Source: Octopus vulgaris
Taxonomy: Eukaryota
Direction of reading: 5' to 3'
DNA length: 64,000 nt
NCBI GenBank assembly: GCA_951406725.2
Contig: OX597833.1
Coordinates: forward strand, 43,276,001 to 43,340,000
The position numbers were made by a program, and so were the translations under genes. Below, in pieces: positions 2,311-25,524 of this stretch. The notes beneath the pieces are model-generated. The model saw nothing but the letters and a program-made list of their open reading frames with translations, did no database searches and was not told where the DNA came from. Each line of letters begins with the position of its first letter. The stretch's first letter is position 1.

Positions 2311-2351
2311 CAGAGCAATGAATAGCTTAACCGAAACCATGGTATGCTTTG
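2311..2351 (+). ncRNA. Minimal type I hammerhead ribozyme candidate with A3-U8 core variant
   Basis: CAGAGCA / ATGAATA / G-CTTAAC-C / GAA / ACCATGGT / A / TGCTTTG: 7-bp stem I (one G-U), 1-bp stem II, palindromic stem III, GUA cleavage triplet. Confidence 0.7.
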
Positions 2352-3372
2352 CTTTCTGACTTTTTAATCATCTCATAATAATGACTTTTATGACTTTTAT
2401 TACTACCTCAGACCCTCTAAATATATATATCTGTCGTTACCTTTCATAAAAAGCCATTTCTTTTTTTATTTACAAAGTGCATTTTCGTTGATTTTTCATA
2501 TTTTCCCCCTTGCATTTCCACGTGTATTTTATATTTTCTTTTTGTAACATATTTCTACTATATATATATATATGAAGTAATTTTTTGTAAAACTTTGTAC
2601 ACTGTTAGTAGCTTTCCTTATTTCTCTTTTCTTTCATTATCTACACACGCGCGCGAGCACACACATGGTCATTCATGACTGAATGGGGTCTTTAACCTTT
2701 ATATGTGTGTATATATTGAGTTTTCCCTCCCAAGGAAATTATCAGTTTCAAAGGCTATAGCCGAAGACACTAACCCAAGCTGCGGCACAGTTGGATACAA
2801 TTTGAAACCACGGGTCTGTGTTTGTATATTCTTTTATTTTATCTTACAAGTTTCTGCCCTAAGGCTGTGGCCATGCTGGAGCACCGCCTGTATATTGCTT
2901 CTTTTATAATTCTTTTACTAGTTTCATTTATTATAATGTAATCGTCTTGCTTGAAGATGAGTTTCTTTTATTCAGCACTAATAATTGAATGGTAGGTACT
3001 CATTTTATCGACCTCGGAAGGATGAATGCGAAGTTTGACGTAGATGGGGTTTGAACTTACCTCGAAAAGGAGTACAACGAAACATGTGTCTATGTGCGTG
3101 TCTGTATATGTATGTATATATGTACTTATGTGCGAGTGTTTTTGTGCATAAATATTTGTATGTATGTATGTGAGTGTGTGTGTGTGTGTGTGTGTGTGTA
3201 TGCCTGCGCGTACACGTGTGTGTGTGTGTGTGTGTTTGTGTGTGCGTGTATATGTATGTCTGAGTGTGTGTGTATGTGTGTATGCCTGCGCGTACACGTG
3301 TGTGTACGTGTGTATGGTATAGTATGGTAACTACTGACCTCTGAGAATTGAAGAATAGGTCTCCTCAATACC

Positions 3373-3984
3373 TATTTCTTTACTACCCACAAGGGGCTAA
3401 ACACAGAGGGGACAAACAAGGACAGACAAACGGATTAAGTCGATTATATCGACCCCAGTGCGCAACTGGTACTTATTTAATCGACCCCGAAAGGATGAAA
3501 GGCAAAGTCGACCTCGGCGGAATTTGAACTCAGAACGTAGCGGCAAACGAAATACCTATTTCTTTATTGCTCACAAGGGGCTAAACACAGAGGGGACAAA
3601 CAAGGACAGACAAACGGATTAAGTCGATTATATCGACCCCAGTGCGTAACTAGTACTTATTTAATCGACCCCGAAAGGATGAAAGGCAAAGTCGACCTCG
3701 GCGGAATTTGAACTCAGAACGTAGCGGCAAACGAAATACCTATTTCTTTATTGCTCACAAGGGGCTAAACACAGAGGGGACAAACAAGGACAGACAAACA
3801 GATTAAGTCGATTATATCGACCCCAGTGCGTAACTAGTACTTATTTAATCGACCCCGAAAGGATGAAAGGCAAAGTCGAGCTCGGCGGAATTTGAACTCA
3901 GAACGTAGCAGCAGACGAAATACCGCTAAGCATTTCGCCCGGCGTGCTAACATTTCGCACGATTCTGCCATCTCGCCGCCTTAA
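3373..3984 (-). mobile_element. Trimeric SINE family A insertion with 14-bp target-site duplication
   Basis: Three 184-bp units start at 3373, 3557 and 3741 with a single head at the right; GTCTCCTCAATACC at 3359-3372 and 3985-3998. Confidence 0.9.
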
Positions 3985-3999
3985 GTCTCCTCAATACCG

Positions 4000-4690
4000 T
4001 CAAGCAATTTCACAAAGCTATTAAGACGTCCTTTGGACTGGTGACGTTTAACAAAGTAACAGACAATATGACATGGTAGACTTGCAAATCGAAAAGGCAA
4101 TTTAGCAGTCTAGCAGTCTAGCGAAGGAAAATAATACAGGCGCTGGATTATGATAAATTCAATACCCACTTGAGCATAGACGAAAGTAAAGCTCTGCGTG
4201 TCAATTCGAATGGAAAATGTATATATTTTGACAGAGTCAAACATTTTTTTAAAAAAACGTTTCTCATTAGCAGGAATACTATACATGCCATTAACATATT
4301 TTCACAACTAGCCATAACATATGGTTCTGTAGTATAGGTTTGGAACCTAACAGACCTAAATTCCAGAGGTCGTATTACGAGAATTCTACCTAAAACACCA
4401 TGTTCTTACACAATAAGTCTAACACCCAACGATTGTGCTGCTCTAAAAAAGGTGGTAGAGAAATAGTAAGTGCCAAAGGAGAATTTTAGAAAGTCAGTTG
4501 TTCATGTCTCCCATTACTTTTCTACTTACAAACGGGCCTGTTACATGCCTAGTTGATTACATTTGTTAGGAAGATAACGATCACTTATCACTGCAGCAAC
4601 AAAATTCTCACAAGAAATTAGATTTCGACAGCTGAAGTCTAAATGTAAAGCTACAGGAAAGCCGAACACGCTCATGACATATAAGTCAAC
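4000..4690 (+). pseudogene. Highly decayed non-LTR retrotransposon RT C-terminal fragment (R4/Dong-like)
   Basis: Broken frames give AIN..., W..TDL and KKGGRE-like residues typical of the post-RT region; no long ORF. Confidence 0.35.
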
Positions 4691-4904
4691 TTTTGGTGCA
4701 TTTGTTTATAATGGCTAATATTTCCGTGAACTTAATGTCCTGTGCGTAAATAAATAAAACCAGCTTTCACTGAGACAACAGAAGTAACAACATTTGCATA
4801 CAAGAAAAACCGGTTGCAATTTGGTGCATTAAATGTTATATCTGCAATTCTGATATTATCGAGGACAATTTTTTTTGTGTGTGTGATGAATTTCATGACA
4901 TAAC

Positions 4905-5065
4905 GTAGTAGTAGTAGTAGTAGTAGTAGTAGTAGTAGTAGTAGTAATAGTAGTAGTAGTAGTAGTAGTAGCAGCAGCAGCGGCGGCAGCAGCAGCAGCA
5001 GCGGCAGCAGCGGCAGCAGCAGCAGCATCAGCAACAGCAGTAGTAGTAGTAGTAGTAGTAGTAGT
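4905..5065. repeat. (TAG)n/(CAG)n compound microsatellite
   Basis: Directly visible. Confidence 0.95.
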
Positions 5066-23320: not shown

Positions 23321-24099
23321 AAATCAGATGAACAACGATAATAAACTGTTGAAAGCATTTTAAAGGATATTTTATTAAGATTATTTATATAAAGCCTCAG
23401 AATAAATCCTATTTAATTTACATACTGTAAAAATTCAATTCAAAATTCAATGGTTTTCTTTTCATGTAATAGAAGATAAAACAGACTTAGTTCCAACCGA
23501 TATTACAAATAAAAACGATAACAATAAGAACACAAATATTGTATTGCAGTCAAAAATAAGAAACAAAGAGAGAGAAGAAAAGCAAATACACCTAATAGTT
23601 TTTTCAAGCAAAAAGAAAAATGAAATCTATATTTAAGATGGCTGATGTAAAGTGTGAAAACACTTGCCCACACGGCACTTGCTAAAAGCATTGTTACATA
23701 TTTAGCATGTATTGGAGTGATATGTACAATGGAAAAACCTCATCTCGGGCGTTTGGCCGTGGAGAAATAGCAACCAAATCTACGCACGTTCTTTGAATGG
23801 GAAGAATATGTGTAATGTAACTTTAGATAGGTTACTAATGTCTCGGTTTGACCTAGAGCTAATTAGCATTCCGGATTCAGTCCTACGGAATAGCTCATTC
23901 AGCAAATGTTTTCTACTATAGCCTCGGGACGACCAAGGCCGTGTGAGGGGATTTGGTGGGCGGAAACTGAAAGAACTCCGTTGTATATGTATATATAAAC
24001 AGCTACACTGTCCTGTTCTTGTTACCACTTTCACCCTCCGCAAAATATCCCAAATTTTATTCAATTTGCTTTACGGGAAGGACTGTTTCAACGGAGTCG

Positions 24100-24305
24100 C
24101 GTAATGTCCTTACCTTCGATACGCGGAGTACATAAAACAGGGACAACTGATGAAGGGGAATACTCTCTATGTTGCATGTCTCGTTTCTCTGTTTGTTTGT
24201 TTTTTTCGTTGTTCAAAAAAGTAGTTCATTTTCTATATTTTGTTTTTATGATTTCGTTTCTCATTGTGTTCAACGTTTTTTTTTATGTCCTGCACCCATA
24301 TATGC
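24100..24305 (+). mobile_element. Short dispersed repeat with hammerhead-like words; second copy inverted at about 50690-50890
   Basis: CCTTCGATACGCGGAGTA...AACAGGGACAACTGATGAAGGGGAAT...TCGTTTCTCATTGTGTTCAAC; its reverse complement is present at about 50690-50890. Confidence 0.7.
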
Positions 24306-24677
24306 ATGTAGGTATGTACATATATGTATGTATATATGCATATATTTATATATTATTTATATTATATATATATATATATATATATATATATATATATATA
24401 TATACATATACATGCATATATACATATATATGTATATATGCATGTATATATATACATATATATGTAGGTATGTATATATGCATATATTTATATATTATTT
24501 ATATTATATATATATATATATATATATATATATACATACATATACATGCATATATACATATATATGTATATATGCATGTATATATATACATATATATGTA
24601 GGTATGTATATATGCATATATTTATATATTATTCATATTATATATATATATATATATATATATATATATATATATAT

Positions 24678-24838
24678 AATTGCAGCGTGGAAGGTGTTTG
24701 TAGCCATTTAAGAAACACACAAAAGCCGTTCGATTCACTTCAACATTTAAGTTTGATTTGTCAAAATATTTTCGTCGCTTTAAGACCGCGACCTGTTCAG
24801 TGAACAGGTTGCGGTCTTAAAGCGACCACGCTGCAATT
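24678..24838. mobile_element. Fold-back module: 26-bp palindrome of a hammerhead core (G3-C8) within 13-bp inverted repeats
   Basis: Arms 24774-24799 and 24801-24826 (one mismatch); AATTGCAGCGTGG 24678-24690 pairs with CCACGCTGCAATT 24826-24838. Confidence 0.8.
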
Positions 24839-25010
24839 GTTTTCATTTCAGCACACGATCTCAGATCAAATCACTTGCTATGCAGGTATATATATATATA
24901 TATATATATATATGTATACACACGCACACACATATATATGTATGGATGTTTGTATGTATCTATCGATCTATCTATGCATGTATGTATGTATGTATGTATA
25001 CACATATGAG

Positions 25011-25524
25011 TAAATGTAATGAGAAACAAATTAGGTGAGTCGATTTACGCAGAATGTTAAATACATTTAACAGAAAAAATGTTCATGTGTATGGATATAA
25101 AATAGTCCGACTTACAGAATATAAATGATATCAGGAGTTAAATGGGTAGAATTTTACGAGTCCAAAAGCTGTTTCTGGGGGCTTGGTAGTCCGGAATAAG
25201 GATAGTTACTTGGAACCATTATCGGATAACATCACCTCCGTCGTCATCCTGTCAACACTTCAAATTCTTCCATGTCAAATTCTCCCCTGAAGACGGGGAC
25301 AGTGTTATCTGATAAAGGATTCAAGTAATTATAAGTATTCCTGACCACCAAGCTCCCTGAACAGCCTTTGGACTCGTAAAACTCTACCCGTTAAACTCCT
25401 GATATCATTTATATTCTGTAAGATGGACTATTTTATATCCATAATCATGTACAATTTTTTTCTATTAAATATATTTAATATTCTGTGTAAATCAATTTGC
25501 CTAACTTGCTTCTCATTACATTTA
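25011..25524. mobile_element. Long inverted repeat (~236-bp arms, 41-nt spacer), PLE inverted pseudo-LTR-like
   Basis: 25011-25246 is the reverse complement of 25288-25524 (9 mismatches in the outer 60 bp); each arm has a decayed hammerhead (CTGAAGA/ATGACGA...GAA(A)CAGC). Confidence 0.85.

Follow-up and report, generated by a model that had tools for sequence, protein, structure and literature searches.

Minimal hammerhead motifs in Penelope-like elements of Octopus vulgaris carry all four Watson-Crick 3-8 pairs as family states

The stretch analyzed here, a 64-kb window (G000:C20:43276001-43340000; the whole of it is meant by "the window" below) of the microsatellite-rich, 2.8-Gb genome of Octopus vulgaris, contains six hammerhead ribozyme motifs, all located in pseudo-long terminal repeats (pLTRs) or pLTR-like stubs, four of which trace to Penelope-like elements (PLEs; Table 1). 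In the canonical hammerhead, C3 pairs with G8 in the active fold only. All four Watson-Crick combinations at positions 3 and 8 can reportedly support cleavage in engineered ribozymes, as is said of work by Przybilski and Hammann in 2007. An earlier reading made from the sequence alone had placed six core heptamers in the window, all of which are present, and had proposed that together they display all four versions of the 3-8 pair. This holds for A-U, U-A and C-G, but neither of the two copies at 24800 is complete: the forward copy lacks GAAA, and its inverted partner reads C3-C8 because the two copies form a fold-back in which position 3 is the single central base, so that no intact G3-C8 ribozyme lies in the window. 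A fold-back centered on position 3 that turned G3 into C3 may account for the window copy, although other C3 copies do not lie at fold-back centers. Each core had also been said to be followed by a stem II and, except on the forward strand at 24800, by GAAA; all six are indeed hammerhead motifs, but at 6428 and 11507 stem II is 71 to 83 nt long. The descriptor used here left positions 3 and 8 unconstrained and in its initial version allowed a stem II of up to 35 nt; it picked up 2318 (A-U), 11310 (U-A), 10872 (C-G) and the inverted copy at 24800, whereas 6428 and 11507 were initially read as non-hammerheads, a verdict overturned by their long stems II, the closing GAAA and the existence of relatives with each layout.

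Table 1. Hammerhead motifs and PLE-related features of the window (ORF, open reading frame; RT, reverse transcriptase)
Feature	Position	Strand	Details
pLTR stub of Neptune-like PLE family A, truncated at its 5' end and flanked by (TA)n tracts	2283..2573	+	823 family candidates genome-wide
Minimal type I hammerhead, A3-U8	2311..2351	+	core 2318-2324; GAAA 2333-2336; palindrome CCAUGG; 7-bp stem I; 1-bp stem II; predicted UA site after 2344
Decayed C3-G8 hammerhead with 71-nt stem II (6428)	6335..6445	-	GAAA 6350-6347; A.C mismatch at stem II base; repeat family with 24 other matches (72-94% identity, some inverted); parent not traced
Nematis-like family D pLTR stub with C3-G8 hammerhead	10750..10945	-	core 10872-10866; extra G after core; stem II with one mismatch; GAAA 10848-10845; predicted site after 10839; 2,792 family candidates genome-wide
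Nematis-like family B pLTR stub with U3-A8 hammerhead	11125..11322	-	core 11310-11304; extra G; 5-bp stem II; GAAA 11287-11284; AU spacer; 3-bp stem I; predicted site after 11280
C3-G8 hammerhead with 83-nt stem II (11507)	11458..11614	+	core 11507-11513; 6 closing pairs in stem II; GAAA 11597-11600; palindrome CAUAUG; stem I weak; predicted site after 11608; one 77%-identical relative with same layout (locus L080); parent not traced
Family C pLTR, inverted copy	24676..24800	-	core 24800-24794, reads C3-C8; stem II; GAAA 24773-24770; predicted site after 24764
Family C, forward copy	24800..24887	+	G3-C8 core 24800-24806; stem II to 24826; deletion of GAAA; ORF N-terminus tail; (TA)n
Repeat family E, inverted pair; decayed C3-G8 hammerhead with long stem II	25011..25530	.	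core 25287-25293 (+); 212 family candidates; core, long stem II and CAGCUG-type spacer displayed in 11 of 14 fetched copies; parent not traced
Fragment of a broken RT from Poseidon-type PLE family F, with DKG motif	42392..43248	+	not parent of families A-D

The sequence-only reading had assigned the motifs to several distinct PLE or retrozyme-like families. The several families stand, A being Neptune-like and B, C and D Nematis-like; retrozymes are not needed, because all four families were traced to PLE reading frames. In family A, the motif lies about 170 to 210 nt past a frame with RT, CX4CX2C linker and GIY-YIG in 8 of 8 long copies, and the CX2-5CxxC linker with a long spacer and the GIY-YIG domain (Pfam score above cut-off) with CCHH are of Neptune type. 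The family C motif follows an RT/GIY-YIG frame by 1.0 to 1.15 kb in three loci (L265-L267) among 8 stretches chosen for paired hits, the family D motif lies downstream of what is left of a GIY-YIG domain at 13 of 30 loci, and for family B a GIY-YIG endonuclease (EN) was found upstream in 2 of 5 loci, one of them the query's own. The search with family D also turned up a young Nematis-like family, G, with intact 1,312-aa frames and pLTR-ORF-pLTR tandems (L302-L314; L305 is G000:C1:59391700-59401699). Families B, C, D and G share RT, a CX2-5CxxC linker with a short spacer and GIY-YIG, the Nematis arrangement; among these four, Pfam matched GIY-YIG in C only, with no match in the G frame, and PLE RTs were not recognized by Pfam.

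The names Neptune and Nematis rest on linker-motif spacing, which matches Fig. S2 of Craig et al. 2021 (PMC8557442) for A and for B, C, D and G, respectively, and not on a tree with named reference elements. Like the members of those clades, the octopus elements have a C-terminal GIY-YIG, the CX2-5CxxC linker and (TA)n targets, and unlike them the 1,312-aa frame of family G has DKS instead of DKG. The four families form one clade, since the ORF N-terminus of G is also encoded in the tails of B, C and D (in the window, the product of 11206-11126 in the B stub matches residues 4-30 of the intact protein of family G at 67% identity) and the endonucleases are 50 to 59% identical. A tree of 23 rows, comprising 9 element rows (three short or duplicate ones dropped) and 14 homologs from databases that give them no clade name, groups (B,(G,D)) with support of 80/97 without resolving the position of C. 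The RT at 42395-43245, pointed out in the earlier reading, is not the parent of the variants: 9 of 30 RT loci of its family carry one shared hammerhead, mostly canonical C3-G8, and none carries the hammerhead of A, B or C.

The earlier reading had described compensated 3-8 swaps, and the family states bear this out. Counts were made with genome-wide patterns in which only the flanks were fixed and positions 3 and 8 were free; copies within a family reflect descent, not independent events, and thus report the state of the source element. Family A is A3-U8 in 59 of 63 copies, B is U3-A8 in 94 of 100 matches listed (of 2,244), C is G3-C8 in 93 of 100 listed (of 7,661), D is C3-G8 in 92 of 100 listed (of 686) and G is C3-G8 in 98 of 100 listed (of 3,724), while A', a Neptune-group paralogue 66% identical to A, is U3-A8 in 99 of 100 listed (of 215). 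The non-modal states in A to D are scattered single changes, as decay would give. Within one A sub-lineage with an identical 28-nt context, 42 copies divide into 27 A-U, 12 G-C and 3 mismatches, with zero G3-U8 (Fisher p 2e-9, for a split that may be a single ancestral event); a G-C and an A-U copy share 90% identity along 838 nt. Two origins of G3-C8 are therefore likely. Altogether, about five independent 3-8 swaps are indicated, each ending on a Watson-Crick pair.

A 12-row alignment of the Nematis-like clade, whose rows are related and were selected by the author, has the 3-8 column paired in 12 of 12 rows as C-G, G-C or U-A, against 20 to 47% paired in slid controls. U4-G5-A6, G10.1-C11.1 and GAAA are invariant across the B, C, D and G rows, stem II is 100% paired with 2 of 5 pairs changed on both sides, and stem I is 86% paired (the B rows being misaligned by 2 nt). 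In the A lineage, stems I and III vary by compensated changes and the stem III palindromes are CCAUGG, CCGCGG, CCGG and CCAAUUGG; those of B, C and 11507 are AU, AUAU and CAUAUG, and the corresponding stretches of D (GAUU) and G (GAAC) are partly palindromic only. The core of a minimal type I PLE hammerhead (N3-UGA-N7-N8-A9 ... GAAA, U16.1-H17, paired 3-8) was found in the family states of A, A', B, C and D; family G departs from it at A9 and one A sub-lineage at G12.

Chance matches were gauged with 80 arbitrary 10-kb stretches (800 kb) and 12 local dinucleotide shuffles. In the window, 5 descriptor matches scored 8 or more, compared with 0.63 in shuffles. In the 800 kb, 22 scored 10 or more, compared with 0.92 per shuffle, and 21 of the 22 are Watson-Crick at 3-8 against 0.33 in shuffles, a shuffle comparison of the kind that the earlier reading had proposed; they comprise 14 C-G, 6 U-A, 1 G-C and 1 mismatch, or by locus 6 C-G, 5 U-A, 1 G-C and 1 mismatch. 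Half of the Watson-Crick loci (6/12) are thus not C3-G8, in agreement with the claim that searches for CUGANGA only would miss such families. At a score of 8 or more, 28 of 38 matches are paired, compared with 3.0 of 9.2 in shuffles. Complementarity also prevails among families, as had been asked of it: clustering of hammerheads in 2.05 Mb of examined sequence gave 13 families at two or more loci, 12 Watson-Crick and 1 a C-G/U-G tie, with no mismatched majority. When high-scoring singletons are included, 20 of 25 clusters are paired (permutation p 2.5e-5, for thresholds set after the data were seen and with relatedness ignored), and position 3 is complementary to the free position 7 in 7 of 25. 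The long-stem descriptor gave 4 matches in the 800 kb against 1.25 in shuffles, a weak excess. Two further window matches at a score of 8, 8692(-) and 11056(-), were treated as chance; the 8692 motif has no repeat relative among the loci examined, a genome-wide search not having been made. An Rfam scan of the window returned no hammerhead among the matches listed (150 of 259, E up to 1), its hits being microsatellite artefacts, and microsatellites likewise dominated whole-window repeat finding. In a search for tandem arrays, no window hammerhead lay inside one among the 150 of 207 rows listed.

Our preferred reading, to which we give a probability of about 75%, is that the six motifs represent minimal type I hammerheads in decayed genomic copies, four of them in PLE terminal repeats, and that the 3-8 pair covaries between families likely through selection to keep the predicted active fold; cleavage of the element RNA by this fold would take place in a dimer or with the aid of the element protein. 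Transcription would start from an internal pLTR promoter about 12 to 50 nt ahead of the core, in the interval where short copies have their 5' ends, and the hammerhead would fold as a dimer via palindromic stem III between two copies, or with the element's protein. With uncleaved RNA as the probable source of most insertions, any cleavage would have to be slow, late or conditional. Reverse transcription would start in the ORF N-terminus and insert at (TA)n, often with a fold-back, to leave short stubs. Source elements changed at position 3 or 8 would have persisted only with a compensating change: C3-G8 could become U3-A8, and A3-U8 become G3-C8 or the reverse, by two transitions via a wobble pair, and a pyrimidine-purine flip would need two transversions and would have occurred at least twice.

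Several observations weigh against this reading. Family G, the youngest with intact frames, has C9 at the normally invariant A9 in 94 of 100 matches listed (of 3,724). A Neptune sub-lineage (L236-L259, e.g. L243:1630-1672) keeps A3-U8, but all 63 of its 63 pattern hits read U ahead of AAA; this GCG-UAAA-type sequence instead of GAAA, which amounts to G12U or a one-base insertion after G12, occurs in 12 of 40 EN-anchored loci. Of 100 family C copies that were anchored just 3' of the predicted site, 92 include the complete core and most start about 25 nt before it, so that insertion templates were mostly uncleaved, and a pile-up of 5' ends at the predicted cleavage site of this family is absent, 2 of the 100 starting within 3 nt. 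The core of family A (2303-2331 in the window) is flanked by complementary stretches, not kept in paralogue A', and folding indicates that an alternative hairpin around the core can form, which could trap it; in family B stem I has only 3 bp; and 5 of the 25 clusters in the wider set are not Watson-Crick. In the PAc element, cleavage by the hammerhead is dispensable for insertion in vitro (PMC11167929). Apart from these points, contigs assembled from four RNA runs contained no variant at 5% or more at G3 or C8, although assembled contigs cannot show RNA ends or expression, and thermodynamic dimer folding, a method uninformative for this fold, gave no hammerhead dimer for most families. What the sequences show directly is where the motifs lie, which 3-8 states the families have and how the pairs covary; the promoter, the dimer and cleavage itself, along with selection for cleavage as opposed to the fold, are inferred.

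PAc hammerhead mutants insert normally and cleavage there requires protein (PMC11167929), as would be expected if the fold, including the 3-8 pair, were kept as a structural signal for PLE-protein binding, translation or the start of reverse transcription, with cleavage dispensable. Such a role would also suit the successful A9C (G) or G12-altered families, which keep the 3-8 pair and the stems, the origin of inserted copies from uncleaved RNA and the position of the motif about 80 to 110 nt ahead of the ORF start. However, the 3-8 pair forms in the active state only, and B, C, D and G all preserve U4-G5-A6 and GAAA without change, as catalysis would demand. Natural variants at A9 and with GAAA insertions can, moreover, be active (PMC10085705; PMC3088659, section 8), and we consider a purely structural role unlikely.

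A still less probable account invokes neutral founder effects, in which amplification started from single source copies with whatever bases stood at 3 and 8, their complementarity being a coincidence. Few source elements per family would make thousands of copies a single event, and the permutation test ignores relatedness, but about five separate swaps all led to Watson-Crick pairs, a mismatched majority occurs in 0 of 13 multi-locus families (one tie), and the comparison of position 3 with position 7 gave complementarity in just 7 of the 25 clusters. Copies of B, C and D are mostly 150 to 250 nt long with sharp 5' ends, a few B copies are in tandem (L076), and animal retrozymes have been proposed to derive from pLTRs (bioRxiv 10.64898/2026.07.22.740005), all of which would fit non-autonomous retrozymes or elements like short interspersed elements (SINEs) spreading via circular RNAs. 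Yet longer copies are continuous into GIY-YIG and RT frames, the tails terminate at (TA)n within the ORF N-terminus, and an inverted partner is often present on the 5' side; these are hallmarks of PLEs and make the circular-RNA route hardly probable at all.

The preferred reading, compensated hammerheads of PLE terminal repeats, extends published work. Minimal hammerheads of metazoan PLEs have been described, with a U3-A8 variant in the Cercyon elements of Schistosoma (Cervera and de la Pena 2014, PMC4209133), and the octopus motifs resemble them in being type I, in lying in pLTRs, and in their extra base after A9, G10.1-C11.1, short stem I, palindromic stem III, frequent U17, mostly single dispersed copies with inverted pairs, and U3-A8 swap. 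Unlike in that study, G3-C8 and A3-U8 are family states here, neither being among the 44 rows of its Fig. S3 compared in full or 12 further rows in excerpt, and all four pairs occur in one genome, three of them in one clade. Natural core variants reviewed by Perreault et al. 2011 (PMC3088659) likewise include 3-8 covariation to U3-A8, a single-pair stem II and an insertion in the GAAA strand, but section 8 of that paper has pyrimidine-3/purine-8 covariation only, whereas the octopus has purine-3/pyrimidine-8, A9C and a G12 change in high-copy families. The PAc Poseidon element shares with the octopus elements a hammerhead near the ORF start, a tail end about 100 to 200 nt downstream, AT-rich targets and uncleaved RNA as the main template (PMC11167929). 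Its C3G/G8C double mutant, which partly rescues the hammerhead, is engineered, whereas octopus G3-C8 is natural with two likely origins. Non-LTR retrozymes are tandem non-coding monomers, each with a hammerhead, unlike the octopus families, which link to coding PLEs. U3-A8 in PLEs is already published; our literature search for natural G3-C8 or A3-U8, which also took in parts of PMC8495972, PMC7151607, PMC3884650, PMC6765202, PMC13725137 and PMC13282606, gave engineered uses only, and it is as engineered forms only that these pairs were found in print, although Lunse et al. 2017 could list such variants.

Other elements were noted alongside. Several repeat families carry hammerheads with a stem II of 50 to 90 nt, at window positions 6335-6445, 11458-11614 and 25011-25530 and in loci L362, L382, L239, L251, L123 and L014; they may match the motifs of Naiad elements that PMC8557442 calls 'half-core'. 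More short U3-A8 or A3-U8 hammerheads with unrelated flanks (L006, L333 and L384; L191; L210; L225; L130; L395) probably represent additional PLE families. A frame in L269:5695-7437 (minus) resembles a Hydra-clade PLE, judging from a visual comparison of its GAYDGAE and YRDD motifs to Fig. S1 of PMC8557442. At L322:2300-4600 (G000:C1:20002300-20004600), an array of units of about 359 nt, five forward and two inverted and each with a canonical C3-G8 hammerhead, is likely a non-LTR retrozyme. The window further contains L1/Tx1-like fragments of long interspersed elements at 48176-48847 and 60499-62722 (minus; RVT_1 below and zf-RVT above cut-off), a 184-nt unit in three tandem copies 97% alike at 3367-3924, probably a SINE-related repeat, and a partial U6 snRNA match at 51728-51779 (+) (E 4e-5, below the gathering score), possibly a pseudogene piece.

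It is conceivable, though we advance the idea only tentatively, that PLE hammerheads are protein-assisted ribonucleoprotein switches freed from the pyrimidine-3/purine-8 preference, the octopus PLEs forming a natural series (four 3-8 pairs, A9C and G12-altered) in which selection acts on the active-state fold and cleavage has been tuned down or lost in the families that were most successful; if this is true, hammerhead counts in animal genomes are underestimated by up to half. In this genome, a search restricted to CUGANGA overlooks about half of the loci with hammerheads, including those of one family with more than 7,600 copies. That natural swaps reach all four pairs, purine-3/pyrimidine-8 among them, offers comparative evidence of selection for the active fold in PLE hammerheads and bears on why PLEs retain a ribozyme whose activity in vitro is weak and can be dispensed with, and the families provide a ready test series of the same clade with different pairs, one of them with A9C.

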